NCBI RefSeq assembly: GCF_024223415.1
Contig: NZ_CP100500.1
Length of the DNA: 64,000 bases
Strand: one strand, 5' to 3'
DNA from: Escherichia coli
GTDB lineage: Bacteria > Pseudomonadota > Gammaproteobacteria > Enterobacterales > Enterobacteriaceae
The translations under genes and the position numbers were made by a program. Shown here in pieces: positions 43,637 to 64,000 of this stretch. Position 1 is the first letter of the stretch. Every line of letters begins with the position of its first letter. The notes below the pieces were generated by a model. It was not told the DNA's origin. It did no database searches and saw only the letters and a list, made by a program, of their open reading frames with translations.

Positions 43637-44203
43637 ATGCTTGAACTTAATGCTAAAACCACTGCGCTGGTGGTGATCGATTTACAAGAAGGCATCTTAC
43701 CTTTTGCCGGTGGTCCACATACTGCCGATGAGGTAGTTAATCGCGCCGGGAAGCTGGCGGCGAAATTTCGCGCCAGCGGTCAGCCCGTGTTTCTGGTGCG
43801 AGTTGGCTGGTCTGCCGATTACGCCGAAGCATTAAAACAGCCGGTTGATGCCCCCTCCCCCGCTAAAGTGTTGCCCGAAAACTGGTGGCAACATCCAGCT
43901 GTATTAGGTGCAACTGACAGTGATATCGAAATCATCAAACGTCAGTGGGGTGCGTTTTACGGTACGGATCTGGAGTTGCAATTACGCCGCCGAGGTATCG
44001 ATACAATAGTGTTATGTGGGATCTCGACCAATATCGGTGTTGAATCCACCGCCCGCAATGCCTGGGAACTTGGCTTTAATCTGGTGATTGCCGAAGACGC
44101 CTGTAGTGCCGCCAGCGCCGAGCAACACAATAACAGCATTAATCATATCTACCCGCGCATCGCCCGTGTGCGTAGCGTGGAAGAGATCCTTCACGCGTTA
44201 TGA
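43637..44203 (+). CDS. yecD: isochorismatase-family hydrolase YecD
   Basis: 188-aa product from [17 protein letters not shown]; the ORF track begins at an upstream GTG. Confidence 0.88.
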
Positions 44204-44310
44204 TTTACATCGGTCTACCGCAATGGTCGCATCCTAAATGGGTGCGGTTGGGGATCACCAGCCTTGAAGAGTATGCCCGCCACTTTAACTGCGTGATACG
44301 GGATTTTTAA
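44200..44310 (+). pseudogene. yecE: yecE 5' fragment, disrupted by prophage insertion
   Basis: Reads [32 protein letters not shown], then diverges from K-12 yecE and stops after 5 more codons; AT-rich phage-like DNA follows. Confidence 0.8.
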
Positions 44311-44411
44311 AAATCACTAAAGAACGCCCAAGAGCATGAGTTTTCTTTAGCATAATCAAAGCGTTGAATTTCCATGCCATATGAAAATCGGCAAAGTTCA
44401 TATGTAACAAA

Positions 44412-44471
44412 GTGTCCCAATCATGCCCCAAATTGCCCCACAACAGACATTTTTGCCCCATGCATGCCCCA
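44412..44471. repeat. phased direct repeats of TG(C/T)CCCA near the prophage-host junction
   Basis: Five copies (TGTCCCA, TGCCCCA x4) starting at 44413, 44424, 44434, 44454, 44465, spaced at ~10-bp multiples. Confidence 0.6.
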
Positions 44472-44492
44472 AAAAATCACTTTCCCTCACCC

Positions 44493-44542
44493 TTGACACT
44501 GTTTATCCATACAGTTAAAAATAATACTGTATACAAACACAG
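44493..44542 (+). promoter_or_regulatory. putative SOS-regulated promoter of phage dinI: -35 TTGACA with two LexA-box-like palindromes
   Basis: TTGACA at 44493-44498; CTGTTTATCCATACAG at 44499-44514; CTGTATACAAACACAG at 44527-44542; both fit CTGT-N8-ACAG. Confidence 0.6.
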
Positions 44543-44557
44543 TGTAGAGGGATTTTT

Positions 44558-44806
44558 ATGCGTATTGAAATCTGTATCGCTAAAGAAAAATTCAGCAAAA
44601 TGCCAAAAGGCTCTGTACCTGCTCTACAACAGGAAATGTCTCGCCGTATCAGAAAACAATACGACGATGTGGAGGTTATAGTAAAATCCGCCAGTAATGA
44701 CGGACTGACCATTTTAAGAGCCGTAGATAAAGAAAACGCTCAGAAGTTCATACAGGAAACGCTGCAGGAAGTCTGGGAAACTGCTGATGACTGGTTTTTT
44801 CACTAA
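44558..44806 (+). CDS. DinI-family DNA-damage-inducible protein (prophage-encoded)
   Basis: 82-aa [22 protein letters not shown]...[16 protein letters not shown], resembling DinI incl. C-terminal acidic WExADDWF motif; good SD (AGAGGG). Confidence 0.8.
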
Positions 44807-44873
44807 TCAGGACGTCAAATAAATAACAACTGTAATTATTCTCTCCAAATTAACAATCTCTGTATACATACTC

Positions 44874-44910
44874 AGGCGTGTTCACGCATACAACACGCCT
44901 TTCTGATATT
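44874..44910 (+). terminator. intrinsic terminator downstream of dinI-like gene
   Basis: AGGCGTGTT-cacgcatac-AACACGCCT followed by TTCTGATATTT. Confidence 0.55.
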
Positions 44911-44982
44911 TAATTGTTTACAGAAATATTGCCGAATAAAAATATAAACCATAGTCTTAAAAAAATAATAATTCCACTATAG

Positions 44983-45078
44983 CTATCCCAGAACAACCAG
45001 TACAAATAATAAAAGACATATCACAGCAACACTCCACACTGACAGCGCAAAAATAAATGCCGCCTTTGTTATCTTCAT
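44983..45078 (-). CDS. hypothetical 31-aa hydrophobic peptide (speculative)
   Basis: Manual translation: MKITKAAFIFALSVWSVAVICLLLFVLVVLG; single predicted TM helix; weak SD; lies in an AT-rich spacer. Confidence 0.2.
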   Translation of the reverse strand: MKITKAAFIFALSVWSVAVICLLLFVLVVLG

Positions 45079-45189
45079 ATACAAGCAACCTGTCCTGATA
45101 ATCACCAACTCATGTTTTATTCTTAACCATTCGTCACAAATACAACAAAAAATAACAGCAGCAGCACCGATATCACAATATAAGATACA

Positions 45190-45645
45190 TTATTCAACAC
45201 CTGAATCCCCCGCAGCTTCTCTCCCCTTTATAAAACGCCCCTTCCGGAATCCAGACCGCTGCAGTGCACGACGAAGATGACCGTATACCGTCTTGTCATT
45301 CTGCCCCGTCTCTTCTGTAATCTCCGCAATACTTAAACCTCTGTAATACCGGTTCAGTACCGCTCTGCGCTCTTCCAGCGTCAACACACCTCCGGCCGCT
45401 CTCAGATTCAGCATCGACTTATTCAGAATACAGCAGGCCTCTCCGGTAAAAAGAATACGAACAATATCTGTATACTCATCATCACAGAATACAAAATAAT
45501 ATCTGAATGACCTGCCTGACTGCACCCTTCTTCTGTCTGATATGGCATCTTCTATATATCTGATTCGACTGCTTACGGTTCCAAATATCTCTCGCAGGGC
45601 TTTTTCAAAATAAATATCTCTCGTCGCCAGGATTATATCCAGCAT
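45190..45645 (-). CDS. LuxR/GerE-type HTH transcriptional regulator (prophage accessory)
   Basis: 151-aa ORF; C-terminal LTLEERRAVLNRYYRGLSIAEITEETGQNDKTVYGHLRRALQR fits the GerE/LuxR HTH pattern; Arg codons almost all AGA/AGG/CGA and frequent ATA Ile. Confidence 0.6.
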   Translation of the reverse strand: MLDIILATRDIYFEKALREIFGTVSSRIRYIEDAISDRRRVQSGRSFRYYFVFCDDEYTDIVRILFTGEACCILNKSMLNLRAAGGVLTLEERRAVLNRYYRGLSIAEITEETGQNDKTVYGHLRRALQRSGFRKGRFIKGREAAGDSGVE

Positions 45646-45661
45646 CTCTGTACCTCATTAT

Positions 45662-45682
45662 ATCCCGGGGGACTCCCCCGGG
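45662..45682. other. GC-rich hairpin between eib-like gene and regulator
   Basis: TCCCGGGGG-ACT-CCCCCGGGA, 9-bp perfect stem, no U-tract. Confidence 0.5.
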
Positions 45683-45705
45683 ACAGATATCTAAATCCTG
45701 ACCTG

Positions 45706-46833
45706 TCAGAACTCAAAATTCACACCAGCATTCCACGATGCGGATGACCCACCTGCAGCAACTGCAACTTTTCCTGCCACATTCTCTGTGAAACGGTAGC
45801 CCACGCCCACCGCAATGGCCTGCTCATCACGGTAACCACCAACGGCTGCTGTCGCGTTAAATTTTCCAACACTGTATGGCTGGAAAAGACCGGCCAGTGC
45901 CGCGCTCTGGGCTGCACTCTCCCTTAACTCCTTCCGGTTCTCTTTAATCTGCTCCTGCATATTATTCATTCTCTCTGTCGCCATCTTCTGCCAGGCTTCC
46001 GTCAAATCCAGACGATGACTGTTATTCCTTATCGCTGCTGTATTTGAGGCTATTGCTGCATCCGTCTGCGCCCTGTTCTTCACAAGCACATCGCTGAGAT
46101 GTTCTGCCTGGCTTTTCACCTCGTTACGGACAGTACGCACACTGCTGTCTGTATATGTACGCGTCTCGTCCAGAACATCCGACTTCACCGCATCCGTGTA
46201 TTCCTGCGCAGAAGCCCTGGCAGCTGTAATATTACCGTTAAGTCTGTTTTCTGCCGATTCCACTCGACTCTTAGCATCAGCAACAGCATCACGGTAGACA
46301 GCTCCTATCTCACCGCGCAGGGCATCCCCCGACTCCCGTACAGCATCTGCAATGGCGTTGTCCATCTGTCCTTTTGTGGCCGCATCACTATCCTTAACAC
46401 CATCTGAAACATTTATAATCCGGCGGGTTTCCGGTGCACCATCAACTGAAAATCCATATCCTGAAGGACCGGCCCCTACAGAAAGTACATTGCTTTCTCC
46501 ATTCACCTGAGAGCCATACCCCAGAGCGACACTGTTGTCTGCATTAAAAACAGCTGTATTATTTCCCACAGCCATGGATTTATCCGCATCCCAAATTATT
46601 GCATCGGAACCAACAGCAAAGTTTTTTCCAGTAACACTACCATCACTGTTAAAATTTCCATTTCTGTCAACCACAGTTGCACTTTCAAGTGAATGAGTGC
46701 CATTATCAATCCAGATAATACCCGTCGATGACTCAGTAAGTGTTTTATGAGCCAAAGCCTGAGATGAGAGCAGCAGGGCCACACTCACTGCCAGCGCGCT
46801 TTTCTTTAAAAAAGCATCACGTCTTTTAAGCAT
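45706..46833 (-). CDS. trimeric autotransporter adhesin, Eib-like (E. coli immunoglobulin-binding protein family) candidate
   Basis: 375-aa product from MLKRRDAFLKKSALAVSVALLLSSQALA (signal peptide; SD AGGAG 9 nt upstream); coiled-coil stalk; C-terminal YadA-like anchor ...WNAGVNFEF; Eib genes are known prophage cargo; the ORF track extends 18 codons upstream. Confidence 0.7.
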   Translation of the reverse strand: MLKRRDAFLKKSALAVSVALLLSSQALAHKTLTESSTGIIWIDNGTHSLESATVVDRNGNFNSDGSVTGKNFAVGSDAIIWDADKSMAVGNNTAVFNADNSVALGYGSQVNGESNVLSVGAGPSGYGFSVDGAPETRRIINVSDGVKDSDAATKGQMDNAIADAVRESGDALRGEIGAVYRDAVADAKSRVESAENRLNGNITAARASAQEYTDAVKSDVLDETRTYTDSSVRTVRNEVKSQAEHLSDVLVKNRAQTDAAIASNTAAIRNNSHRLDLTEAWQKMATERMNNMQEQIKENRKELRESAAQSAALAGLFQPYSVGKFNATAAVGGYRDEQAIAVGVGYRFTENVAGKVAVAAGGSSASWNAGVNFEF

Positions 46834-47181
46834 TCTGTTATTCTCCTGTATTATTACTTCACCAGCCAGAACGGTAGTGCGGAGCAAAAATACAGTGATA
46901 AGAATCCTCTTTTATTAATTTAATAATATCAGGAATATTATTGTGTATAATATGCGCCCTCAATTTAAGCAGCAGAAAAGCAATGACGCGAAAATCATTA
47001 AAATACATAAAGATAAAACATCATAACTATAATTATAATAAGCGCGCTTATTTTAGCATCTGAACATTTAAAGTACTGCTATCACAAAACAATAAAAATC
47101 CTGGGTAATATCTCTGATGATTGAATGAGAAATTCACGATGTCTGGTGAGAATTCTGTTCAAAACGAGGAATGCAGACGTA

Positions 47182-47268
47182 CACGTGGCACGCACCACGT
47201 GATCCGTAGAAAAGCCTCTTGTTACGAATTTCGTAAACCGCACGTCTGTCTGGTCGTGCGGATTTTTT
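47182..47268 (+). other. three consecutive hairpins ending in an intrinsic terminator (candidate structured RNA 3' end)
   Basis: CACGTGG-cacgca-CCACGTG (47182-47201); perfect 15-bp palindrome TTACGAATTTCGTAA (47222-47236); CCGCACG-tctgtctggt-CGTGCGG + ATTTTTT (47238-47268). Confidence 0.45.
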
Positions 47269-47454
47269 ATCCGTCAACTTCACATGAAACCCGCCAGAGC
47301 ACTGTTTCCGGATTCAGACATCAGGCATATTATCATCCACAATATCGTGAACAAGATCACCTTTTTGCAATTCCTTTATTGATCGAAAGCAGTTAATCAC
47401 TGAAATTAATTACCGGAGTGAAAGCATTACTGCATAATAAATATAGATCCTTGC

Positions 47455-47488
47455 CCCCCTCTGACAGAATTTTCAGAGGGGTTTTTTT
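47455..47488 (+). terminator. strong plus-strand intrinsic terminator
   Basis: CCCCCTCTGA-cagaattt-TCAGAGGGGG followed by T7; plus-strand only. Confidence 0.65.
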
Positions 47489-47496
47489 TATCAGTT

Positions 47497-48072
47497 TCAC
47501 CATCCAACCCTGTACGCCAGAATGGTTTCACTGTCACTCAGTTCTGCTATTGCCTTTTTCATCTCCCTTTGCCTTATATGTATTTCAAGGCCTTTCCTGA
47601 ACATCGCTTTACCAGCAGCATCACTCAGGGATATCAGTTCATCTGCCGTCATCGGTACATCATTATTCTCTGCGTCCGTCCAGAAAAATCCTTCCGGCAA
47701 CACTCCGCCTCTGGCCGCTGATGCCGACATTCCAAGACGTGTCATGGCTTCCTTTCCATAATCCCATTTCCGTCCTCTGTGCTCAAAAACATACCCTGAC
47801 GCCTCCATCGCATCACGCCAGGCATTTATCTCCGCGTTTTTCATCCTGCGTGCTTCTTCCACAGCCATATCATCATTTGCCCGGTACTCACCTACCGGCC
47901 CTGCATCACCTCTTATGCAGGCTTCAAATATTTCACGACCGTAAGACTCAGGATCATCCGCACTTGCTGTAAATACACATTCTGTTTCCGCGTCTGAAAA
48001 CTTCACTATACAGTTTATGGTCGTATGACCCCTGTCAGCCCACACTGGTGACGTGATTTTATCGACCTTCAT
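47497..48072 (-). CDS. hypothetical phage protein at the tail-fibre-assembly (tfa) position
   Basis: 191-aa ORF immediately downstream of the stf-like gene with SD GGGGAGAAA; does not resemble lambda Tfa as far as I can recall; assignment is positional. Confidence 0.4.
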   Translation of the reverse strand: MKVDKITSPVWADRGHTTINCIVKFSDAETECVFTASADDPESYGREIFEACIRGDAGPVGEYRANDDMAVEEARRMKNAEINAWRDAMEASGYVFEHRGRKWDYGKEAMTRLGMSASAARGGVLPEGFFWTDAENNDVPMTADELISLSDAAGKAMFRKGLEIHIRQREMKKAIAELSDSETILAYRVGW

Positions 48073-48086
48073 TCATTTCTCCCCTG

Positions 48087-49892
48087 TCACCGTATTCTCT
48101 GAAACAGGCCCCAAATCGTCCCAATGATATTATTCACTGTCATGTTAGTTGTGCATAACATCCATGTACCAAGCATAGGATTGCCAAATAAAAAGCGGAT
48201 ATCTGTAAGTTTATCCGATGACGACGACACAATAACGGCCTGTCTGATACGATACCCGGGTATTTCACGGGTATTTGTTACCTCATGATTTCGTTCTATG
48301 ATCCCCAGAACATAAGACCCCACGGAATAAACACTTCCGACGCTCGCTGGCTGCCCCGGCTGTCCCTGTGGTCCTGCCGGGCCGCGTTCACCTGTATACC
48401 CTCTTGGCCCCTGAGGACCTGCCGGGCCGCGTTCACCTGTATCCCCCTTTAGTCCCTGTGGACCTGCCGGACCGCGTTCACCTGTATCGCCCTTTGGTCC
48501 CTGTGGACCACGCTCCCCCTGGGCTCCCAGCTCTTTCCATTCAGACCAGGGGCCATTACCGGTAAAATTACCAGTAACAGTTCTTACGAACTTTCGTGGT
48601 GGGTTCCAGGTTGTATATTCATGCTGGCAATATCCCCATGCACCAACTCTTACCTGAAGATAACCCGCTCTCTGAATCGGATAATTATTTTCTCGTGTAG
48701 CCCCACTGTCTGATGGCTGATAATAATCACCCTGATCGGTCACTCGTCCCAGTCGGTTCAGATCACCATTCAGCAGTTGTCCACGGGCTGACTCTCCTCT
48801 TGGTCCCTGAGGACCTGCCGGACCGCGTGCTCCTGTTTCACCTTTTGCTCCCTGTGGACCTGTCGGACCGCGTTCACCTGTTTCACCTTTTGGTCCCTGT
48901 GGTCCTGCCGGGCCGCGTTCACCTGTTTCACCCTTTGCTCCCTGTGGACCTTCCGGGCCACGTTCACCTGTATCCCCCTTTGGTCCCTGAGGACCTGCCG
49001 GGCCACGTTCACCTGTATCGCCCTTTGATCCCTGTGGACCTGCCGGGCCGCGTTCACCTGTATCCCCCTTTGGTCCCTGTGGACCTCCCGGATCTCCTTT
49101 ATCCCCCTTAGGGCCTTTTTCTCCTCGCTCACCCTTTTCTCCCTTCAGACCCTGAGGGCCTTCCGGACCACGTGCACCTGTTTCGCCCTTTGCTCCCTGT
49201 GGACCTGCCGGGCCGCGTTCACCTGTTTCGCCCTTTGCTCCCTGTGGACCTGCCGGGCCGCGTGCACCTGTTTCACCCTTTGGTCCCTGTGGACCTGCCG
49301 GGCCGCGTTCACCTGTATCGCCCTTTAGTCCCTGTGGACCTGCCGGACCGCGTTCACCTGTTTCACCTTTTGGTCCCTGTGGTCCTGCCGGGCCACGTGC
49401 TCCTGTTTCACCTTTTGGCCCCTGTGGCCCGGTAATGCCTCTTTCACCACGAGCGCCGGTATCCCCTTTCTCTCCTCGTGGTCCCCGGGCAGATGCTGCT
49501 CGTTTCCGGGCTTCCTCCGCCTCAGATGCCGCGGACTCTGCTCTGTGCAGTATGGACTGCACCACAGCCTCCAGCTCTGACAACGCCTTCGGATAATAAG
49601 GAGCATCTTCCAGCTCCATCAGAAATTTATTCAGTGTTCCCGGTGAAGAATCCTCCCTGACCACGATATCTCCCACATACGAAGGACGGTAACCTTCTGT
49701 ATTGAGTGTCACCCTGTATATTCCTGGCTCCACATCCATACTGTAACTCCCCGTCTCTTCCGGCATGCCATAAGCCACTGTCGTGGCGATGACTGTCTCG
49801 CTGGTTCTCTTCGCTTTCAGCTCAATAATGCATCCCGGTACCGGTTTTCCGGTTCCGTCCCTCAGCACGCCTGAAATTTTTACAGCCGCCAT
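48087..49892 (-). CDS. stf: side tail fibre protein (Stf-like) with collagen-like G-X-Y repeats
   Basis: 601-aa ORF; N-terminus [18 protein letters not shown]... resembles lambda Stf N-domain; two long blocks of GPxGxKGxTGxRG repeats; distinct C-terminal domain. Confidence 0.8.
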
Positions 49893-49964
49893 ACTCGCTC
49901 CATAAAAAATAATCCCGCAAAATTGCGGGCGTCGTCATTCATTTACAATCGGGTGTTTTTATGA

Positions 49965-50210
49965 TTACTTCACGCACGAAACTTTCGTAAACATATCTTC
50001 ACTCACCCACTGACCATAAAATCTCGGAGCTGATACTTTATACACAGTGCCGCTTTTCGTTTCTATTTTCCCTGTAAGATCTACCGTATAAGCTCGCTGT
50101 AAAACCCCGGGACTCAGCACACCGGTGCACCGGACTCTCTCCGTAACGGAACGGTACCCCGCGCAACCTGATACAAGAAACAGCAAAAAAGTGCAGACGA
50201 TTATTTTCAT
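49965..50210 (-). CDS. small lipoprotein, Cor-like candidate
   Basis: 81-aa ORF with signal peptide and lipobox LVSGC; sits at the lom/cor position; no homology recalled. Confidence 0.5.
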   Translation of the reverse strand: MKIIVCTFLLFLVSGCAGYRSVTERVRCTGVLSPGVLQRAYTVDLTGKIETKSGTVYKVSAPRFYGQWVSEDMFTKVSCVK

Positions 50211-50231
50211 TACATGCCCTCAACATAACTA

Positions 50232-50894
50232 TCAGTACGCATCATAAATTTCTGCATTTATGTAATAACAGAGGTTATTAACAACACCTGAATTATCATT
50301 GGGCGCCGCTACGTTATCTTCAGCAAAAGTTGACTGACGCCATAACTGTGAGTTTCTGGCATTAAAACTGGCGGTATACCAGTAATAACTCTCCCCTTCC
50401 TGAACTGTCGTCCACTGGGTACACCCCGGCATTACGGCCACATCATGTCCCACACTGATCGGTACATCCTTTTCCCATATTCGCGTCATTTTTACTTCCA
50501 GTGGCAGCATTTCCGTGTTCCAGACCACCCTGCCATGACTGTCGCACAACTGTATTCCCCATTGCGGCCATACATTCACCATGTTGGCAAAAACATAAAC
50601 AACATATGTGCTGTCCTGTTCCATGCCCGGCTCCTGCCCTGTACCAGCGCTGAAAATGTCATACTGCCAGGTACCGTTAAGCTGAACCATTTCACCATGG
50701 AAGGACTGATTACCGCTTATCTGTTTAATAAAAATCACGCAACGATAATTCGTCGGCACCCCAGTGTCGATAAACTGCATCACCGCATCACGCGCACTCA
50801 GTGTGAAATGAAAACGGCGCACAAGGTTCAGTGGCGGCGCAACAGGTGATATCCATTCTCTCCCCCGCTCATCAGTTAATTTAAGTGCAAACAT
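50232..50894 (-). CDS. hypothetical tail-associated protein
   Basis: 220-aa ORF; start ATG overlaps stop of upstream 86-aa ORF (ATGA). Confidence 0.55.
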   Translation of the reverse strand: MFALKLTDERGREWISPVAPPLNLVRRFHFTLSARDAVMQFIDTGVPTNYRCVIFIKQISGNQSFHGEMVQLNGTWQYDIFSAGTGQEPGMEQDSTYVVYVFANMVNVWPQWGIQLCDSHGRVVWNTEMLPLEVKMTRIWEKDVPISVGHDVAVMPGCTQWTTVQEGESYYWYTASFNARNSQLWRQSTFAEDNVAAPNDNSGVVNNLCYYINAEIYDAY

Positions 50895-51154
50895 CAGATC
50901 CCCCTTATCATGACCAGCACGGGTCTTAACCAGCTTGTGTTGGCATAGTGCACTGTCCAGCCGGATACACTGGCACTGGTATGACTTCCCTGACCGTTAA
51001 TCAGAATGGCCGGTGAACAGACTTCCAGACGCCAGCCCTGCAAAGGAGTATAAGAACGCTGCCCCGTCCCTTCAGTGATCACATCCAGCACCCCTGTTGG
51101 GTTTATTTCATGTGTCACAAGGCGCCCTTTGCGCCATACCCGGACTCCGAACAT
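50894..51154 (-). CDS. hypothetical small protein coupled to J
   Basis: 86-aa ORF; start overlaps J stop (TAATG). Confidence 0.5.
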   Translation of the reverse strand: MFGVRVWRKGRLVTHEINPTGVLDVITEGTGQRSYTPLQGWRLEVCSPAILINGQGSHTSASVSGWTVHYANTSWLRPVLVMIRGI

Positions 51155-54663: not shown

Positions 54664-54679
54664 TCCTCACACTCCATAA

Positions 54680-54706: not shown

Positions 54707-54729
54707 ATGAGTTACGGCAGGATTAACTA

Positions 54730-55068: not shown

Positions 55069-55140
55069 ATAGCTAACCAACAGAATAATTATCAGTGTTC
55101 GATATAAATATTAAATCAGTTAGAACATGAGTAAATAATA

Positions 55141-55782
55141 TTACCGCCCAATTACCACAACCTGACCACCATCCCCTTCATCTGCCGTGCTAATCTCCTG
55201 AGATGCCACACGTGACCCCACGCGCATTTCACCGTACAGAACAGGCAGGACATTGCCCTGGGCAACCATGTTATCCAATGAGGAAAAATAGGTATTTTGC
55301 TTACCGTTATCAGTGGCTGACACTTTAGGCGTTTTGGCTTTCGGTGCCAGCATCTGCGCAACACCGCCTAAAACCATACCTGCCCCAAGAGAGAACATGA
55401 GATTACTTGCAACAATACTAAGCCCCGGCATCCAGATTGCCGTAGCAATTAGCGCCGCACCCAGCACTGCCTGAAAAATACCGCCACTTTTGGCACCCGC
55501 CAGACGCGGTACGATGTGGATCACGGCACCATTTGCCAGCGGCTCATTAAGACGGGCAGATAATTCGTTTTCGCCTGCATCACGCCCGGCAATGCGCACC
55601 TGATACCAGCCGTCATTCAGTTTCTGACGAAACGCCGGGAGCTGTGTGGCCAGTGCCCGGATGGCTTCAGCCCCCGTTTTCACACGAAGGTCGATGCGGC
55701 GGCCAAATCGTTGCAAATCCCCGTAAAGGCAGATGCGTGCCATGCCCGGTGACGCCTGAGGGAGTGTGTGCGTCGCTGCCAT
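55141..55782 (-). CDS. I: tail assembly protein I
   Basis: 213-aa ORF similar to lambda gpI; follows K with overlap. Confidence 0.88.
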   Translation of the reverse strand: MAATHTLPQASPGMARICLYGDLQRFGRRIDLRVKTGAEAIRALATQLPAFRQKLNDGWYQVRIAGRDAGENELSARLNEPLANGAVIHIVPRLAGAKSGGIFQAVLGAALIATAIWMPGLSIVASNLMFSLGAGMVLGGVAQMLAPKAKTPKVSATDNGKQNTYFSSLDNMVAQGNVLPVLYGEMRVGSRVASQEISTADEGDGGQVVVIGR

Positions 55783-56423
55783 TTGTCGGTGTACCTCTCT
55801 CGTTTGCTAAGTTGTTCAGGAATATGGTGCAGCAGCCCGCCGTCGCCGCAGTAAATGGCGGCATGATTCGGCACCGATGAACCAAAACAGCACAGCAGCA
55901 CGTCGCCGGGCTGCGCCTCTGTCAGTGCGACACGGTAAAAACCAGTCGCCTCCATATTGTCAAGATAGAGATTCTGACCGTTACGCCACCAGTCATCCCC
56001 GCGATGAAAATCCGGCATCTCAATTCCCGCCAGATGGTAAGCATCCCGGAACAGCGTGTAACAGTCCGTCACCCCGTGCTCAAAGCACCGCCCGGTGAGA
56101 TGCGGCACACAGCGGAACTTGTGAATCGCCCCCCGGCAGACCAGCCACCACGGCAAATCACTCTGCACCTGCAGCCGCCGGTCGGCCTCACTCAGCCAGG
56201 GCAGACCACCGGGGTGACTGTGGACCAGTGCCACAATCTCACCCTGCATTTCTGCCTGCAGCCAGTCCTCCGGCGACATCCGGAAATACGCCTCCGGCTC
56301 ACCGGAGATATTCACGCAGGGGAAATATCTTTCCCCCTCCGGCGCTCTCACCACGAAGCCGCACGACTCCGCTGGCGCACATCGCCGGGCGTGCGCCAGA
56401 ATCGCTGATTCTGTCTCTGTCAT
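55680..56423 (-). CDS. K: tail assembly protein K (NlpC/P60 + JAB-like)
   Basis: Product from MTETESAILAHARRCAPAESCGFV..., matching lambda gpK as recalled; the ORF track extends upstream. Confidence 0.88.
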   Translation of the reverse strand: MTETESAILAHARRCAPAESCGFVVRAPEGERYFPCVNISGEPEAYFRMSPEDWLQAEMQGEIVALVHSHPGGLPWLSEADRRLQVQSDLPWWLVCRGAIHKFRCVPHLTGRCFEHGVTDCYTLFRDAYHLAGIEMPDFHRGDDWWRNGQNLYLDNMEATGFYRVALTEAQPGDVLLCCFGSSVPNHAAIYCGDGGLLHHIPEQLSKRERYTDKWQRRTHSLRRHRAWHASAFTGICNDLAAASTFV

Positions 56424-56427
56424 GGAA

Positions 56428-57126
56428 TTACTGCGAAAGTTTGTGAATGGAAAGAAAACCGCCAAAGTTGCCGACGTTATTGCGAAACTTACAGCCGCTC
56501 AGGCATTTGCTGCATTTATCCTTCGTGATATCGGACGTCGGCTGATCATATTCATCCGCGACCGCCGGACCGCTATAACCGCACTCATCGCCGCGATAGG
56601 TCCAGGTGCAGGTGTTGGCCAGCATGATACGTCCCGGAAAAACAGCGCCGTCCGTTTCCGTCGGCGTGGCCAGTACAAAGGTCGCGCTGACCGCTGTCAA
56701 ATCACTGCACTGCTCGATGCGCCAGCGGCTGATAACCTCCTGCTCCGGATCGGCGTCACTGTTTCCGTTGACGAAGTTCACCGCATCCAGAAAACGGGCA
56801 TAAACTTTACGCCGGACCACCGTTCCGCCGACCAGACTCTGCATATCTTCCACCATACCGGTGACCATACCGTACAGGTTAGAAACCGTCAGCGTGGGGC
56901 GCGTACTGGTGCCTTTGCCATTCAGTTCAAAACCACTCCCCTGAATGGGATACGGCTGATACTGTCGCCCCTGCCAGGTGACCGGCTCACCTTTTTCGTT
57001 CTGCTCATTACAGAAAAAATAACGTTCTCCACCGACCTCTGTCAGATCGATTTCCCAGAGCACCACGCTGGCCGACTGCTCCGCACGGGTGCATTCATTC
57101 AGTGTTTCCTGCCGGATATCCTGCAT
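56428..57126 (-). CDS. L: minor tail protein L
   Basis: 232-aa ORF MQDIRQETLNECTRAEQSASVVLWEIDL..., lambda gpL length and sequence as recalled. Confidence 0.92.
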   Translation of the reverse strand: MQDIRQETLNECTRAEQSASVVLWEIDLTEVGGERYFFCNEQNEKGEPVTWQGRQYQPYPIQGSGFELNGKGTSTRPTLTVSNLYGMVTGMVEDMQSLVGGTVVRRKVYARFLDAVNFVNGNSDADPEQEVISRWRIEQCSDLTAVSATFVLATPTETDGAVFPGRIMLANTCTWTYRGDECGYSGPAVADEYDQPTSDITKDKCSKCLSGCKFRNNVGNFGGFLSIHKLSQ

Positions 57127-57455
57127 CAGTTCACCACCTGTTCAAACTCTGCGCTGAACTCAACACGCAGCATACTGACCCGCGACGACCATTTTGCGCA
57201 GGTCACCTTTATCTGCCGCCACTCATAAGGCGGCGTCCACAGAAAGGATTTCCAGCCCCCGTGCTCTTCCAGAAACGACTCCAGTACCGTGGCCTCCTCA
57301 CGGGGGACAGAAAGCGTCACGCTGTACGTTTTCAGGTTGGCATTCAGCCCGGCAGGCGCTCGCTGGGAATAGCCATCACCAAAGCGCACCTTTCTTACAG
57401 AAGGGACCGAAGCCACATCCATACCGGGTTTCACTTTCCAGCGGAAGGTTTTCAT
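57126..57455 (-). CDS. M: minor tail protein M
   Basis: 109-aa ORF, lambda gpM length; overlaps L start. Confidence 0.9.
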   Translation of the reverse strand: MKTFRWKVKPGMDVASVPSVRKVRFGDGYSQRAPAGLNANLKTYSVTLSVPREEATVLESFLEEHGGWKSFLWTPPYEWRQIKVTCAKWSSRVSMLRVEFSAEFEQVVN

Positions 57456-60013
57456 CGTCCACCTCCGGAGAACAGACCACCATCACGCATCTGTGTCTGA
57501 ATTTCATCACGGGCACCCTTGCGGGCCATGTCATACACCGCCTTCAGCATCTGTGGACCTGGCAGACCATTCGTACCGTCGTTCTGAATCACCACGTTGT
57601 TGTTCTGCTCAAACCTGATACCCTCTGAACGCCGCATTTGTGCCGGACTTCCGGTGCCACCGACATAACCACCAGTGGCATAGCCGCGCATCAGCCGGTA
57701 GAGATTTCCCACGCCAATCCGGCTGGTTGCCTCCTTCGTGAAGACAAACTCACCACGGTGAACAATCCCCGCTGGCTCATATTTGCCGCCGGTTCCCGTA
57801 AATCCCCCGGTCGCAAAATGGAATTTTGCCGCAGCAGCCTGAATGGCTGTACCGCCTGACACTGATGCGCCACCACCGGCAGCACCGCCAATGACGCTGC
57901 CGATACTCCCGACAATCCCCACCATTGCCTGCTTAAGCAGAATTTCTGTCATCATGGACAGCACGGAACGGGTGAAGCTGCGCCAGTTCTGCTCACTGCC
58001 GGTCAGCATCGCCGCCATATTCTGTGCAATTCCATCAAAGGTCTGCGTGGCTGCACTTTTTACCTGCGACATACTGTCCGTGGCGCTCTCTTCCCACTCA
58101 CTCCAGCCGGACTTCAGGCCTGCCATCCAGTTCCCGCGAAGCTGGTCTTCAGCCGCCCAGGTCTTTTTCTGCTCTGACATGACGTTATTCAGCGCCAGCG
58201 GATTATCGCCATACTGTTCCTTCAGGCGCTGTTCCGTGGCTTCCCGTTCTGTCTGCCGGTCAGTCAGCCCCCGGCTTTTCGCATCAATGGCGGCCCGTTT
58301 TGCCCGTTGCTGCTGTGCGAATTTATCCGCCTGCTGCGCCAGCGCGTTCAGGCGCTCCTGATACGTAACCTTGTCGCCAAGTGCAGCCAGCTGGCGTTTG
58401 TACTCCAGCGTCTCATCTTTATGCGCCAGCAGGGATTTCTCCTGTGCAGACAGCTGGCGACGTTGCGCCGCCTCCTCCAGTACCGCGAACTGACTCTCCG
58501 CCTTCCACAAATCCCGGCGCTGCTGGCTGATTTTCTCATTTGCTCCGGCATGCTTCTCCAGCGTCCGGAGTTCTGCCTGAAGCGTCAGCAGGGCGGCATG
58601 AGCACTGTCTTCCTGACGATCGCCCGCAGACACCTTCACGCCGGACTGTTTCGGCTTTTTCAGCGTCGCTTCATAATCCTTTTTCGCCGCCGCCATCAGC
58701 GTGTTGTAATCTGCCTGCAGGATTTTTCCGTCTTTCAGTGCCTTGTTCAGTTCTTCCTGACGGGCGGTATATTTCTCCAGCGGTGTCTGCAGGCGTTCGT
58801 AAGCCTTCTGCGCCTCTTCGGTATATTTCAGCCGTGACGCTTCGGTATCGCTCTGCTGCTGCGCATTTTTGTCCTGTTGACTCTGCTGCTCAGCCTTCTT
58901 TCGGGCGGCTTCAAGCGCAAGACGGGCCTTTTCACGATCATCCCAGTAACGCGCCCGCGCTTCATCGTTAACAAAATAATCATCCTTGCGCAGATTCCAG
59001 ATATCGTCCGCTTTCTTAAACGCGGCCTCTGCCTTAATCAGCATCTCCTGCGCGGTATCAGGACGACCAGTATCCAGCACCGCATCCCACATGGATTTGA
59101 ATGCCCGTGCTGTCCTGTCTGCCCAGGTTTCCAGCGTGCCCATGTTCTCTTTCAGGCGGCGGGTCTGGTCATCAAACCCTTTCGTTGCGGCCTCGTTCGC
59201 CGCCTGCAATGCCCCTGCCTCATCGCCGGAACGCTGCAACTGAGCAACATACGCAATCTGCTCCGCCGTCACGTTATGGAACTGGCGCGCCATCGCCGTC
59301 AGCCCCGACGTCGGGTCTGTGGTCAGCTTCCCGAAGGCTTCAGCGACCTTGTCCACCTCCACGCCGGATGCAGAGGAGAAACGCGCCACACTCTGGCTGA
59401 TGGACGCAATCTGAGCCTCACCGCTTACCCCCGCCTTAACCAGTGCGCTGAGTGACTCGCTGGTCTGGTTAAACGTCAGCCCTGCCGCCTGCCCGGCTCT
59501 GGACAGGACCAGCATACGATCTGCCGTCAGTCCCGCCTGATTGCCGGAAAGGACCAGCGTTTTGTTGAAATCGGACAGGGTTGAGTTGCCCTGATACCAG
59601 GCATACGCCAGCGCACCGGTCGCCACCGCCAGCGAGGTGGCCCCGACCATCGGCAGGGTGATCGCACCGGCAAGCCCCCTGAACATGGGGATCATCCCGC
59701 CGAAGGAGTCCTTCACCTGACCACCCTGTTGCAGCAGGATCAGCCACGGACTCTGCCCGCCTGCAAGCTGTGTGGCCACGTCGGTGAACTGTGCAGGCAG
59801 CATACGCATGGCGGCTTTATACTGTCCGACGGAAATCCCCGCTTTCTGTGCAGCCAGCGCCTGCCGGTTCATTGACTGTTCAACGACTGCCGCTGTTTTT
59901 TTCGCATCACTTTCCGTACCGGAAAAATGACGCCTGACTCTGGCCATCTGCTCGTCAAACCTGGCCGCATCCAGACTTAAATCAACGACCAGATCGCCTA
60001 CCGGTTCAGCCAT
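57452..60013 (-). CDS. H: tail tape measure protein H
   Basis: 853-aa ORF, same length as lambda gpH; matches recalled sequence over most of its length. Confidence 0.93.
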   Translation of the reverse strand: MAEPVGDLVVDLSLDAARFDEQMARVRRHFSGTESDAKKTAAVVEQSMNRQALAAQKAGISVGQYKAAMRMLPAQFTDVATQLAGGQSPWLILLQQGGQVKDSFGGMIPMFRGLAGAITLPMVGATSLAVATGALAYAWYQGNSTLSDFNKTLVLSGNQAGLTADRMLVLSRAGQAAGLTFNQTSESLSALVKAGVSGEAQIASISQSVARFSSASGVEVDKVAEAFGKLTTDPTSGLTAMARQFHNVTAEQIAYVAQLQRSGDEAGALQAANEAATKGFDDQTRRLKENMGTLETWADRTARAFKSMWDAVLDTGRPDTAQEMLIKAEAAFKKADDIWNLRKDDYFVNDEARARYWDDREKARLALEAARKKAEQQSQQDKNAQQQSDTEASRLKYTEEAQKAYERLQTPLEKYTARQEELNKALKDGKILQADYNTLMAAAKKDYEATLKKPKQSGVKVSAGDRQEDSAHAALLTLQAELRTLEKHAGANEKISQQRRDLWKAESQFAVLEEAAQRRQLSAQEKSLLAHKDETLEYKRQLAALGDKVTYQERLNALAQQADKFAQQQRAKRAAIDAKSRGLTDRQTEREATEQRLKEQYGDNPLALNNVMSEQKKTWAAEDQLRGNWMAGLKSGWSEWEESATDSMSQVKSAATQTFDGIAQNMAAMLTGSEQNWRSFTRSVLSMMTEILLKQAMVGIVGSIGSVIGGAAGGGASVSGGTAIQAAAAKFHFATGGFTGTGGKYEPAGIVHRGEFVFTKEATSRIGVGNLYRLMRGYATGGYVGGTGSPAQMRRSEGIRFEQNNNVVIQNDGTNGLPGPQMLKAVYDMARKGARDEIQTQMRDGGLFSGGGR

Positions 60014-60440
60014 ACCGGACTCCTCCTGCGATCCCTTCTGATACTGTCATCAGCATTACGTCATCCTCCGTCATGTCCGCCACATCCGGGGATGCAGGGA
60101 TAACTTCATTCCCGTCCGGGCCAAAGCGGACGCCTCCGGCAAGCCCTGCCGCTTTCTGCATCAGCACATCATCTTCAGGCTCTTCGTCAGCCTCGCGCCG
60201 GTTCAGCAGACTGAAATCCAGCGGATGCATATCCGGATCGCTGAAAAACAGGCTGAGCACGGTGTACGTCAGCCCGGAAAAGTGCATATCCAGCAGAACA
60301 TCATGAAAATAATGGGTACTGTAAAAGCGGTGCCAGTCGGCATACTCCGTGGATGACATCCCGGCAAGCATGGCGCGCCAGTCGGGTCGCCCCATCTCAC
60401 GCGCCAGTTTCAGGGCAAAACTCAGCTCACCGTCGAACAC
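60006..60440 (-). CDS. T: tail assembly chaperone T segment (expressed as G-T fusion by -1 frameshift)
   Basis: 144-aa ORF MFDGELSFALKLAREMGRPDWRAMLAG..., lambda gpT-like; overlaps 3' end of G in the -1 frame. Confidence 0.88.
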   Translation of the reverse strand: MFDGELSFALKLAREMGRPDWRAMLAGMSSTEYADWHRFYSTHYFHDVLLDMHFSGLTYTVLSLFFSDPDMHPLDFSLLNRREADEEPEDDVLMQKAAGLAGGVRFGPDGNEVIPASPDVADMTEDDVMLMTVSEGIAGGVRYG

Positions 60441-60844
60441 TTTCCCGCAGAAACAGGCTCTGCAGGCCCGGCGTCATCTGCCTGTTCAGGGGCATTATTC
60501 ACAACAAACTCAGACATTCCGGACAGACGTAACACCACGTTTTCAGCCTGAGCAATTGCCTCCGTGGGCCAGGTGGTAAGCACTTCCTGCTCAATCTGCG
60601 TAATGGCTTCATTCATGGGCAGCAGCTTTGTCTTCTGCGGATGGTTATGCCACAGAGACATCGCCACCAGAAACGCCCCGCCTCTGATAAGATCCTCTAC
60701 AGACACCTGCAGGTTGCCACTGGATTCAGCCTTTTTTTCCTGCTCTTTCAACCAGGCAAGATGCTCAATACGCTGCAGGGCTGACAGTTCAGAAAGCGTG
60801 ACGGTCACGCCGTTATGTTCAAATGATTCGTTTTTCAGGAACAT
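60422..60844 (-). CDS. G: tail assembly chaperone G
   Basis: 140-aa ORF, lambda gpG length. Confidence 0.9.
   Translation of the reverse strand: MFLKNESFEHNGVTVTLSELSALQRIEHLAWLKEQEKKAESSGNLQVSVEDLIRGGAFLVAMSLWHNHPQKTKLLPMNEAITQIEQEVLTTWPTEAIAQAENVVLRLSGMSEFVVNNAPEQADDAGPAEPVSAGKCSTVS
60440..60446 (-). other. G-T programmed -1 ribosomal frameshift slippery site
   Basis: GGGAAAG heptamer on the minus strand, a few codons before the G stop, as in lambda. Confidence 0.8.
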
Positions 60845-60859
60845 CGCTGACTCTCCGGA

Positions 60860-61600
60860 TTAACTGGCGGTGACGTTGATTTCTGCAACCGCAGCAAGTT
60901 CACCATTACCGGATACGACCGGAATGTTGACCCTGCCTGCAGCAACGCCCTTCACGGTGATGGTCATACCACTGACCGACACGGTGGCTTTTGTTTTATC
61001 CGCAGACACCGCACGGAAGCTCTTGTCGGTTGCGCCTTCCGGCTGGAATGCCACGGTCAGCGTGGTGCTCTGCCCTTTCACCACCGAGGTGCTGGCAGGC
61101 GTCACGGTCATGCCGGTTGCCGCTGTTAGCGTGCTGCGATCTTCTGCCATCGACGGACGTCCCACGTTGGTGACTTTCACCGTGCGGGTGATCACTTCCT
61201 TCGCTGTCACCGCCTTACCGATGCTGCTGACCCAGCCGCGGAACACATCGACCGTGCCGTTCGGGAAGCGGATTTTATAGGCACGGGTATCACCTTCATT
61301 AAACCACGCCAGCAGCGCCTGCTGCCCCTGCTCTCCGGGCATCCACGCCAGCGTGAAGCTGGTATCTCCGGCGGATTTCTGCCCCTGTCCGGTCGCGGCC
61401 CAGTCCGAATCTTCATCATCGAGATAGCTGTCGTCATAGAAATCTGCGGTCAGTTCGCCGGGCGTCAGGTCTTTAACTTTAGCCAGACGCGACCAGTCAT
61501 TGTCTGAAAGCGGGTTCGCATAAGGGTCACCGTTCCCCTTATAAACCCACAGTGTGGTCCCGGCCCCTTTCACCGGTGCCAGAGGATTTGGTGTTGGCAT
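60860..61600 (-). CDS. V: major tail protein V
   Basis: 246-aa product from [22 protein letters not shown]...; C-terminal Ig-like domain; the ORF track extends 10 codons upstream. Confidence 0.93.
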
Positions 61601-61607
61601 ATCGTCC

Positions 61608-62003
61608 TCACATTTCATAGGTAATGACATAAGTCAGATCGGCTGAACTCCACAGGCCCGCATCATCGTCGCGCCGGTAGTCATAGCCACTGGCCACCAT
61701 ACTGGTGATCAAATCTGACAGTGCCGGGATATCGCTCATCACCGGATAAATCCGGGACTCCATCCACGAATCCAGCTCTGAATCCGGCACCTGAGCAGGC
61801 AGGAAAACTTCAATATGCAGCTCCGCCTGCCAGGTATCGCTGTCCAGCTCTTCGCCCGTGTATTCAGCGCCGGTGAGATAAACGGCAACTGCCGGAAAAT
61901 CCGCCTCATCAAAAACAGCGGGGCGACCATCAAAAAACGTCGCCCCGGTGTCATGCTTCTCCAGTGCATCCAGTACGGCTGTACGGATATCAGTATTTTT
62001 CAT
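61608..62003 (-). CDS. U: tail terminator protein U
   Basis: 131-aa ORF, lambda gpU length. Confidence 0.92.
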
Positions 62004-62575
62004 CGCTTTATCACAATCCTCAGTTGTTGTTTCAGCGCATAGCTCAGTTCTTTTGGCAGACGTTCGCGTCGGATACGGTTAACGTTCTCATCAAAAGCCT
62101 GTTTCAGTGGGGCCGACATCGGAATTTTCACCACCTGAATGGGAAGACGATTACGCTTTTTCCTTCCCTTATCGTCATTGCCCTTCGCATACCTGGCTTC
62201 TGGCAGACGTTGCATAACATGCCAGCGCCCATTATTCAGTCGCTGGATGAATGCCCGCTGATAACGATGCTGACCGGCTTTGAGTATGCTGTTCGGGCGA
62301 CGTCCCAGCATCCTGATCCCCAGCTTAATCACAGGAAGATCGCCGCGGTTAACGATAATTTTTGCGTTCGGATTTCTGACCGTAGCCCGTTTCAGTCTGG
62401 ATCGCTCTTTAACAAGTTTTCTCGGCACCCGGGTTTCACGGGCGACCTGAGACGAAGACTGATTAATCGCCGTTGTGGCCACGCGGTTAATGGCCATTGC
62501 GGCGGCACCAGGCACCGCCGTTCTGCTGATACGGCTGAGGTTTTCAACGGCCTGCTCAAGACCCTGTATGGCCAT
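62000..62575 (-). CDS. Z: tail completion protein Z
   Basis: 191-aa ORF MAIQGLEQAVENLSRISRTAVPGAAAMAINRV..., lambda gpZ-like. Confidence 0.9.
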   Translation of the reverse strand: MAIQGLEQAVENLSRISRTAVPGAAAMAINRVATTAINQSSSQVARETRVPRKLVKERSRLKRATVRNPNAKIIVNRGDLPVIKLGIRMLGRRPNSILKAGQHRYQRAFIQRLNNGRWHVMQRLPEARYAKGNDDKGRKKRNRLPIQVVKIPMSAPLKQAFDENVNRIRRERLPKELSYALKQQLRIVIKR

Positions 62576-62586
62576 ACATCCCCCTT

Positions 62587-62949
62587 TCAGCGGCGACGAT
62601 TAACGGCAGGCGGTACGCCCCGCCCAAGCCAGAGATGACAGCTTCCGCCATCATCCGGCGAAACCCGGTCTATCCAGAAGTTTTCCTCACCGATGGTCAG
62701 CGTGTCTCCACGCCGCAGTTGCCGCACATCATCAGTCCGGACAAACAGGGACGGGCTGGAGCCTTCAACGCGCACGCCCTGTCCGGCATAGCTGATATTT
62801 TCAGGGTCATCAAAAACACCACGTATTACTGCGCCGGGCTGCTCACCGGATGTAATGGTGGCTGACGTTCCCATATGCCCGCGTATCGTTTCATCAGCCC
62901 GGGCAATGGCTGTATCAAAACCGTTATCCCTGATATTAATAACTTTCAT
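62587..62949 (-). CDS. FII: head-tail connector protein FII
   Basis: C-terminal ~100 aa match lambda gpFII as recalled (...AIARADETIRGHMGTSATITSGEQ...); N-terminus differs; the ORF track extends upstream. Confidence 0.85.
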   Translation of the reverse strand: MKVINIRDNGFDTAIARADETIRGHMGTSATITSGEQPGAVIRGVFDDPENISYAGQGVRVEGSSPSLFVRTDDVRQLRRGDTLTIGEENFWIDRVSPDDGGSCHLWLGRGVPPAVNRRR

Positions 62950-63298
62950 CTGTAACAAGCCCCTCCAGGACAAGTTCCGCAACATTCACTGGATCAACTC
63001 TGACAGTCATACCTGTAACAACAATCTCCATATCACTGTCATCATGCGGATGTTTTCCCGCCACATGCAGGGTTTTGAGTACACGAACAGTGCTCATTTC
63101 ATCCCCGCCAGTGGAGTGGCTATACGTCATCAAATGCCTTTCGTTCTCATCACTCTCCTGGTTTTTGTCCTCTGCTTCCTCTTCCCATTCCGCCACCCGC
63201 TGCGCTATCTCTGCGGCACTCCCGGATATATCCGGCTCACGCCCCAGAATCAGGGCCAGTTCATCAAGCCGTTTCAGATTTTGCTCTTTCGTTGCCAT
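62936..63298 (-). CDS. FI: DNA packaging / head assembly protein FI-like
   Basis: ~120-aa product from MATKEQNLKRLDELA... at the lambda FI position; sequence diverged from lambda FI. Confidence 0.7.
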   Translation of the reverse strand: MATKEQNLKRLDELALILGREPDISGSAAEIAQRVAEWEEEAEDKNQESDENERHLMTYSHSTGGDEMSTVRVLKTLHVAGKHPHDDSDMEIVVTGMTVRVDPVNVAELVLEGLVTDESY

Positions 63299-63349
63299 AT
63301 CAGCCCCCTGTGAAAAAAGACACGGGGGCATTTCGCCCCCGCTCACGGA

Positions 63350-64000
63350 TTATTTCACCTGTACCACCACAAACTCATCCGGGTCCGGCAACACCATCAG
63401 CGGCGCGGACTGCGTCATGGTAAATTCACGGGCGGGATCCCCCACCGTCAGCCAGTGTTTCGGATAACGGGAAGAGGCCACCACTCCTTCAGACAACGCC
63501 TGTGCATCCTGAATGGCACCGTAACAACGGATCCCATCTGCAGCAGTATTCCCCAGGACCAGCGTGCCGTCTGGCAGATAACGTTTTTCGGTACCGTCCT
63601 CTGCCACATAAGACGTTTTCGCCACCACAATGGCCAGATCACCGTAATACCCTTTGAAAGACACCACCGCCCCCAGGTCTTTCACTGCCGTTTCGAGTTG
63701 CGAATTTGAACCGCGACGGGTATCCAGTTTTTCGCGGAACAGCTTAAAACCATTCAGCAGACGCCAGACGGTACCGTCCATAATGGCAATATTCACAAGG
63801 CCGCTGGCCTGGTCGCAGTAGAGGTCAATATCATGCGCAGGATCGAACGTGTCACGATCGTGCTCAGACCATTTTTTACCACTGGCCTGCGTAATGTTAT
63901 TCTTCGTCGACCTGCCAAAATCGACCTCAATTTTCTCGAACTGGTCTCCTTCCATGGTGTATTTGCCATACAGCACGGCATTTACCGCCTGCATTTCTTC
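63350..64000 (-). CDS. E: major capsid protein E (C-terminal part; gene continues beyond window end)
   Basis: 214-aa partial ORF ...AVNAVLYGKYTMEGDQFEKIEVDFGRST...PDEFVVVQVK at the lambda E position. Confidence 0.9.
   Translation of the reverse strand, partial: EEMQAVNAVLYGKYTMEGDQFEKIEVDFGRSTKNNITQASGKKWSEHDRDTFDPAHDIDLYCDQASGLVNIAIMDGTVWRLLNGFKLFREKLDTRRGSNSQLETAVKDLGAVVSFKGYYGDLAIVVAKTSYVAEDGTEKRYLPDGTLVLGNTAADGIRCYGAIQDAQALSEGVVASSRYPKHWLTVGDPAREFTMTQSAPLMVLPDPDEFVVVQVK

Follow-up and report, generated by a model that had tools for sequence, protein, structure and literature searches.

The last 19.7 kb (44296-64000) of a 64,000-nucleotide stretch of the Escherichia coli contig NZ_CP100500.1 (assembly GCF_024223415.1; hereafter, the window) almost certainly represent the tail-proximal end, beside one attachment site (att) junction, of a lambdoid siphovirus prophage inserted in the host gene yecE. 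The element would have entered through the site-specific recombination of a tyrosine integrase, at a 21-23-bp att sequence in codons 25-32 of yecE. Inside the central tail fibre gene J is a recombination breakpoint, at which a lambda-type body is joined to a distal end of the phi80/N15/T1 type. The integrase, immunity, replication, lysis, and packaging genes would lie beyond the window end. Every module is of a known kind and the insertion site is a textbook one; what is undocumented is the mosaic itself, a lipoprotein gene between I and J, and a 151-residue protein with a helix-turn-helix (HTH).

Window positions 1-44295 aligned with the cspC to yecE region of E. coli K-12 MG1655 as a single megablast high-scoring segment pair (identity, 98.85%; mismatches, 497; gap openings, 10). 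The original prediction had described this flank as base-for-base colinear with K-12; the colinearity held, and the base-for-base identity did not, the host being an E. coli about 1% diverged from K-12. When yecE was compared base by base, the K-12 gene matched through nucleotide 96 (codon 32, position 44295), and similarity was gone from 44296, the G+C content (GC) being 0.503 for the host sequence and only 0.368 for 44296-45189. The break expected at about codon 32, with AT-rich unrelated sequence after it, thus proved exact: it is fixed at 44295/44296, where K-12 yecE does not continue as the window does. It falls at the att sequence in the 5' part of the gene, as for phages that integrate in yecE. 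That yecE is a known phage integration site, also part of the original prediction, is documented: it is used, with 21-bp attL/R sequences, by Shiga toxin (Stx) phages of the Stx1a, Stx2a, and Stx2d kinds and by non-Stx phages (PMC8112680).

The junction recurs at the edge of a complete element. A 140-bp junction probe was 100% identical in TUM1886 (NZ_CP128970.1), with 97.9% identity over 1.6 kb, and there the joint bounds a complete lambdoid prophage of 44,940 bp (2,235,5xx-2,280,5xx) with int and xis genes, which bears out a lambdoid prophage in yecE. Its order is yecN, yecE, int, xis, immunity, replication, Q, porin, lysis, terminase, head, tail, J, cargo, DinI-like gene, yecE fragment (yecE'; a partial pseudogene in the RefSeq annotation), and yecD. 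The integrase is at the far side, in agreement with the expectation that the integrase end lies outside the window. The ends of the TUM1886 element form an imperfect 23-bp direct repeat, ATGCCCGCCACTTTAACTGCGTG on the yecD side and ATACCCGTCATGTTAACTGTGTG on the int side. PhiR49_2, an induced phage, has the same 437-residue integrase and the same excisionase as the TUM1886 prophage, and the two share an int/xis/att/DinI module. With a slash marking the joint, the attP of PhiR49_2 reads …ATACCCGTCATGTTAACTGTGTG/ATACGG…, which agrees with the phage side of the window junction (GTG/ATACGGG); the attP predicted for the window prophage is …TTAACTGTGTG/ATACGG….

These comparisons also bear on whether the 44295/44296 joint could be an assembly or scaffolding artefact, uniting a chromosomal contig with an unrelated phage contig. 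Nothing specific pointed to such an error, which was raised solely since no record holds the whole 19.8 kb, and the recurrence of the junction excludes it for practical purposes: the probe matched TUM1886 at 100% identity, at least 329 of 5426 complete E. coli genomes cover 80% or more of its length, the break lies exactly at the att core common to the PhiR49_2 attP, and phage phi80 has the joint within its own sequence. The phi80 copy (about 15150-15700, beside a dinI-like gene) is 88% identical to window 44101-44475 and spans the end of yecD, 96 nt of yecE up to the same GTG, and the phage arm. A yecE-integrated ancestor evidently acquired exactly this joint, and the phi80 copy presumably arose via aberrant excision and then recombination between phages. 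On the phage side of the junction, the motif TG(C/T)CCCA occurred in five copies within 59 bp, as against 0.33 per kb in the whole window, with a spacing conserved in the PhiR49_2 arm; judging from the sequence, these copies are probably integrase arm-type sites.

Since yecE is the classic Stx-phage site, the tail end of an Stx-converting phage was weighed as an alternative, and we regard it as improbable. The insertion of Stx1a, Stx2a, and Stx2d phages at yecE speaks for it, as do the many Stx-phage records that gave partial matches in a megablast search of the phage collection and the resemblance of the DinI arm to yecE-integrated Stx2 phages. That resemblance is low, however, at about 73% identity across the att arm of Stx-phage records; non-Stx phages also occupy yecE (PMC8112680), and in TUM1886, the closest whole-prophage analogue, the interval from Q to the lysis genes has a porin gene where stx would stand, and stx is absent. 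In the window prophage, this interval would lie past the window end.

The phage region itself has the gene content of a lambdoid siphovirus. Lambda proteins were placed by tblastn, and families were assigned by PHROG, NCBIfam/TIGR, and Pfam profile searches (Table 1). From 44296 on, the minus strand carries E, FI, FII, Z, U, V, G/T, H, M, L, K, I, and J in lambda order, the products being 63-100% identical to lambda or matching a PHROG family. FI gave no BLAST match to lambda FI, and the uneven identities to lambda indicate ordinary lambdoid mosaicism. Protein sizes were the same as in lambda for T, H, M, L, G, U, and V, and J has 1169 residues as against 1132. A slippery heptamer, GGGAAAG, stands in the right frame at 60440-60446, and a simulated -1 shift gave a predicted G-T fusion of 279 residues. 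The predicted gene order and lambda sizes were therefore upheld. The statement that everything distal of I is non-lambda was not: lambda homology runs 2.5 kb into J and ends at about residue 837 (window about 52155), residues 1-836 being 93% identical to lambda J by tblastn, so the switch lies inside J. The description of the distal part as cargo stood in part: strictly, only an adhesin cassette, a DinI-like gene, and two lipoprotein genes are cargo, and roughly half of the distal part consists of host-recognition and side fibre genes.

A defective (cryptic) remnant, with an intact tail end and the unseen part deleted or inactivated, is possible and seems to us unlikely. Many E. coli lambdoid prophages are defective, all ompW prophages, for example, having been judged so (PMC8112680). 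The relative in F1022 has an IS66 insertion sequence (IS) in its cargo region, and a lipoprotein-J block like that of the window lies in a truncated remnant in MS20649; moreover, int, cI, O/P, Q, and the terminase genes are outside the view of the window. Against a remnant, each of the 23 phage genes seen has an open, full-length frame, the frameshift site is intact, and no IS elements are present. The closest analogue at the same site, in TUM1886, has a full gene complement.

Beyond residue 836, J differs from its lambda counterpart and is without lambda's LamB-binding end. Its last 146 residues had 38% identity with the C-terminal end of phi80 J (E 3e-28), and its final 333 residues had 25-28% identity with the J proteins of T1 and the T1-like phage orkinos. 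A 58-residue tandem duplication was found in the coiled-coil part of this C-terminus (window about 51649-51996, residues about 890-1005). The start of the gp22-like gene overlaps the J stop, and its own stop overlaps the start of the 220-residue gp23-like gene; its position corresponds to phi80 gp22 and T1 ST32. The gp23-like protein was 21-23% identical to phi80 gp23, T1 ST31, and orkinos_28 (E 3e-14 to 9e-5), and genes of this type adjoin the J homologue in phi80, T1, and orkinos. The locus is hence of the phi80/N15/T1 type, with a J that has no lambda-type C-terminal domain followed by a gp22-like gene (a weak match) and a gp23-like gene, and the order J, gp22, gp23, cor is the same in the phi80 and T1 annotations. 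In small siphoviruses, the loci downstream of gpJ encode terminal receptor-binding proteins and their cognate superinfection-exclusion lipoproteins (PMC8594841; preprint 10.64898/2026.04.02.716166). Given this literature and the phi80/T1 arrangement, the region was read as virion host-recognition genes with an exclusion gene, not as cargo. J, the gp22-like protein, and the gp23-like protein would form the receptor-recognition tip, and the Cor-like lipoprotein, made by the lysogen, would block that receptor against superinfection. The Cor-like open reading frame (ORF) is 99-100% conserved and unannotated in RefSeq in TUM1886 (42251-42493) and F1022 (10735-10977).

Several observations weigh against the interpretation given so far, or limit how closely it can be drawn. 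The window ends inside E and hence gives no view of completeness or inducibility. The att repeat is imperfect, with C in the yecD-side (host-type) copy and T in the TUM1886 int-side copy, so the crossover can be placed no finer than within TTAACTG(C/T)GTG. Neither the E. coli nor the phage collection has a record that covers the whole 19.8 kb, the best being F1022 with 81% coverage and 97.6% identity, and the exact mosaic is therefore undocumented. The gp22, gp23, and Cor alleles share only 20-32% identity with their counterparts in phages whose receptor is known, and the Cor-like protein scored 28.4 bits with the NCBIfam Cor model, just below the curated cut-off of 31. Phages phi80, T1, and N15 use FhuA as receptor, and Cor inactivates FhuA. 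With alleles so diverged and a Cor score under the cut-off, any receptor assignment is a guess, and FhuA is named here by default, by analogy with these three phages. Receptor-specific families have been defined at 30% identity (preprint 10.64898/2026.04.02.716166), and the window alleles fall below this value.

Table 1. Features at the yecE junction and in the phage region of the window, in order of position. Percentages are amino acid identities.
Feature	Position	Strand	Basis or remark
yecD	43637-44203	+	Host gene adjoining the insertion; colinear with MG1655 yecD
yecE'	44200-44295	+	First 96 nt (32 codons) of yecE, truncated by the insertion; identical to K-12 nt 1-96
att repeat at junction	44273-44295	none	ATGCCCGCCACTTTAACTGCGTG; common core TTAACTG(C/T)GTG
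Five direct copies of TG(C/T)CCCA	44413-44471	+	Candidate integrase arm-type binding sites
Two LexA-box matches (CTGT-N8-ACAG)	44499-44542	+	Boxes at 44499 and 44527, in tandem, over promoter-like site of DinI-like gene
DinI-like protein, 82 residues	44558-44806	+	PHROG 189, E 2.5e-27; adjoins att
151-residue protein, C-terminal sigma-70 region-4/LuxR-type HTH	45190-45645	-	Pfam Sigma70_r4_2, E 4e-7; at ORF-156 position of P-Eib prophages
YadA-like trimeric autotransporter adhesin, 375 residues	45706-46833	-	Pfam YadA_anchor, E 2e-16; PDB YadA anchor 2lme, E 1e-17
Tail fibre assembly-like (Tfa-like) protein, 191 residues (ORF-191 type, DUF4376)	47497-48072	-	PHROG 1141, E 5e-62; 59% to ORF-191D of P-EibD
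Side tail fibre (Stf), 601 residues	48087-49892	-	PHROG 366, E 2e-119; 97 collagen-like Gly-X-Y triplets
Terminator-like hairpin after Cor-like gene	49914-49929	-	phi80 terminator at same position
Cor-like exclusion lipoprotein, 81 residues	49965-50210	-	Lipobox LVSGC; PHROG 1119 (Cor), E 8e-7; 32% to phi80 Cor, E 1e-7
gp23-like protein, 220 residues (N15 gp23/phi80 gp23/T1 ST31 family)	50232-50894	-	PHROG 425, E 3e-27; candidate receptor-binding accessory protein
gp22-like protein, 86 residues	50894-51154	-	PHROG 557, E 2.8e-4 only (weak)
J, central tail fibre, 1169 residues	51154-54663	-	NCBIfam lambda_TipJ, 1978 bits; residues 1-836 lambda-type, 837-1169 phi80/T1-type
Terminator-like hairpin after lipoprotein gene	54686-54706	-	Nine pairs, six G-C, then T-rich tail
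112-residue lipoprotein	54730-55068	-	Lipobox LTGC; PHROG 914 (function unknown), E 6e-33
I, tail assembly protein	55141-55782	-	78% to lambda I
K, C40-family peptidase	55680-56423	-	93% to lambda K; start set by RefSeq homologues
L, minor tail protein	56428-57126	-	97% to lambda L
M, minor tail protein	57126-57455	-	100% to lambda M
H, tape measure protein, 853 residues	57452-60013	-	97% to lambda H; TIGR01541
G and G-T fusion, tail assembly chaperones	60006-60844	-	G 81%, T 100% to lambda; TIGR01674, TIGR01715
V, major tail protein	60860-61600	-	94% to lambda V
U, tail terminator	61608-62003	-	96% to lambda U
Z, tail completion protein	62000-62575	-	63% to lambda Z; PHROG 27
FII, head-tail joining protein	62587-62949	-	95% to lambda FII
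FI, DNA-packaging chaperone	62936-63301	-	Non-lambda allele; PHROG 92, E 2e-33
E, major capsid protein	63350-64000	-	C-terminal 216 residues only, cut by window end; 64% to lambda E residues 127-335; PHROG 6020, E 2e-106

The Gly-X-Y triplets of the side tail fibre are arranged in runs of 45, 32, and 20. Its N-terminus, a prophage tail-fibre domain, was 31% identical to lambda Stf; the protein had 43% identity to the ORF-401-like protein of the prophage P-EibA. This collagen-like fibre type has been catalogued in E. coli prophages (PMC3368898). Together with the 191-residue assembly protein, whose homologues in TUM1886 and F1022 are annotated DUF4376, it would form the side fibres. The 660 bp upstream of the adhesin gene (46834-47496, 37% GC) are probably a regulatory region; a strong hairpin (47456-47481) lies there directly past the Tfa-like stop codon, with a T-run on the opposite strand.

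The adhesin has the architecture of the Eib proteins, comprising a signal peptide, YadA head repeats, a stalk, and a YadA anchor. It also has their location, between an ORF-191-type gene (59%) and an ORF-156-type gene (marginal similarity). Its ATG start was fixed by homologues of 375-377 residues with 98-99% identity. The adhesin was 39% identical to EibC and EibD, with high identity only in the anchor (55/75), and 57% identical to EibA over the C-terminal 118 residues; the comparison with EibD structures gave E 0.22. A close EibA orthologue, which the 393-codon ORF might suggest next to the 392 residues of EibA, was ruled out, as similarity is confined to the C-terminal 118 residues and the true length is 375. 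EibA and EibD are identical at 79 of 86 positions (92%) of a stalk segment conserved in EibA, EibC, EibD, and EibE alike, as against 19-20 of 72 (27%) for the window adhesin, which has a 10-residue deletion at DRIDYAVGAI and does not preserve this segment. The 2011 work of Leo and colleagues on the EibD structure is said to place the immunoglobulin G (IgG) Fc binding site in the segment, at about EibD 384-418. For residues D378 and Y388, given for EibE in a preprint, no correspondence with the EibE sequence in GenBank could be established.

EibG-like adhesins include the lineages Cla and Yal, which do not bind IgG (preprint 10.64898/2025.12.25.695649). With these non-binding lineages and the conserved stalk segment missing, the label "immunoglobulin-binding protein" on the 98%-identical homologues is unsupported and is not to be trusted. 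The strain probably expresses this prophage-borne YadA-like adhesin, which, with its own AT-rich upstream region and the small HTH protein downstream, would be a lysogenic-conversion surface adhesin of the Eib/Cla/Yal kind. Among the near-identical cassettes of the window, TUM1886, and F1022, the adhesin passenger was 47-70% identical and the flanking Tfa-like and HTH genes 99-100%; this hypervariability suggests allele swapping or diversifying selection.

The 151-residue HTH protein resembled ORF-156A/C/D/E of the P-Eib prophages marginally (hhalign probability 66%, E 5.5e-5, 128 columns), and an aspartate at the end of its predicted strand 3 is common to P-Eib ORF-156. An exhaustive HMMER search of 1.84 billion representative proteins returned nothing beyond near-identical E. 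coli and Salmonella copies. Its AlphaFold model had a predicted local distance difference test score (pLDDT) of 60, too poor for a fold search, and suggests, with low confidence, a short beta-alpha domain followed by the HTH. A role as regulator of the adhesin cassette is a guess.

The protein next to att scored 71.8 bits with the NCBIfam DinI model, as against an equivalog cut-off of 111, and is therefore called DinI-like rather than DinI itself. A promoter-like TTGACA site (44493-44522) lies under the two LexA boxes, and the equivalent genes in phi80 and VT1-Sakai are annotated with LexA sites; from these motifs, the gene would be SOS-controlled. Scans of the phage region found no match to an Rfam family, a tRNA, or a defence system.

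The original prediction missed an AT-rich insert of 477 bp (54664-55140, GC 0.365) in the I-J gap, which measures about 60 bp in lambda, TUM1886, and F1022. The 112-residue lipoprotein gene that it carries is absent from these three, and 333 of 5426 complete E. coli genomes (about 6%) have the insert in this context. Phage phi80 also has a moron, morF, in this gap, to which the window gene is unrelated. AT-rich and with its own terminator, the insert has the classic moron layout and would be an independent moron. The lipoprotein is identical at 112 of 112 residues in prophages at prfC, torS-torT, and dusA, in which a lambda-type J is followed by lom, and it is thus not tied to the J variant of the window. 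A receptor blocker strictly matched to J was ruled out on the same grounds, the identical protein standing beside a lambda-type 1132-residue J and Lom in CB9615 and C7. The same lipoprotein-J block was also seen inside the truncated prophage remnant of MS20649. Tai tail-assembly-inhibition systems (PMC11364771), considered for a gene among tail genes, were rejected as well, being unrelated and located elsewhere in phi80.

The I-J lipoprotein matched nothing in Pfam, NCBIfam, or PADLOC, and a tblastn search of 50,697 phage records was negative. For its structural model, a confident one (pLDDT 83), the best PDB fold match was Francisella Flpp3, a weak one (E 5.5e-3, template modelling score 0.5). 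The protein belongs to a broad proteobacterial family of lipoproteins of about 112 residues, some or often phage-linked, with no characterised member. We tentatively propose an uncharacterised envelope factor made by the lysogen, with superinfection-exclusion or host-interaction proteins as the candidates; the likeliest class of function is exclusion or modification of the envelope in the lysogen. This family is common yet unstudied, and the Cor-like gene has been overlooked by RefSeq in close relatives.

Taken as a whole, the region is a clean example of lambdoid mosaicism, in which the body of the tail is of lambda type and the receptor tip of phi80 type, combined with an adhesin cassette of Eib type and the int/att/DinI module of yecE. 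Its significance beyond annotation is small; both the prophage and its insertion point were callable from raw sequence.

Lambda (NC_001416) shares with the window the E-J order and sizes, the G/G-T frameshift, and identities of 93-100% for FII, U, V, T, H, M, L, K, and J residues 1-836. It differs in E, Z, and I, which are 63-78% identical, in FI, which is another allele, and in the J C-terminus, which in the window is not of the LamB-binding type. Compared with lambda, the window prophage also has no lom, a collagen-like Stf, a replaced b region, and an att in yecE, not at the gal-bio attB. The likeness to phi80 lies in the gene order, which in phi80 runs J, gp22, gp23, cor, terminator, tail fibre, and a dinI-like gene with LexA sites (dinL), with identities of 38% for the J C-terminus, 32% for Cor, and 21% for gp23. 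Relative to phi80, N15, and T1, however, the window alleles are highly diverged and the J body is lambda-type.

The P-EibA, P-EibC, P-EibD, and P-EibE prophages of E. coli ECOR-9 (AF151091, AF151674-6; Sandt and Hill 2000, as cited in PMC3368898) provide the counterpart for the distal genes. The P-EibA order J, lom, orf-401, orf-191, eib, orf-156 corresponds to the order in the window. Shared features are the collagen-like ORF-401-type fibre, ORF-191 (56-59% identical), a YadA-like adhesin whose anchor is 73% identical (55/75), the hairpin, and an ORF-156-type gene; the att-proximal arm of P-EibC is 87% identical over 510 bp. In contrast, the adhesin passenger is 16-31% identical, the window is without orf-60 and eaa, and its HTH protein is marginally similar to ORF-156.

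The TUM1886 prophage, with its identical yecE junction, shares the E-to-DinI order with the window, and identities were 99.5-100% for J and the gp22-like and gp23-like proteins, 99% for the HTH protein, and 99.5% for the Tfa-like protein. It differs in being without the I-J lipoprotein and in having an adhesin of 513 residues (70% over the C-terminal part), a Stf that is 76% identical over part of its length, and H and G at 90% and 79%, respectively. In F1022, nearly the same tail-plus-cargo block, interrupted by IS66, is joined via the same DinI end to a different site next to yfhH, which indicates that the tail-plus-cargo block travels between att modules.

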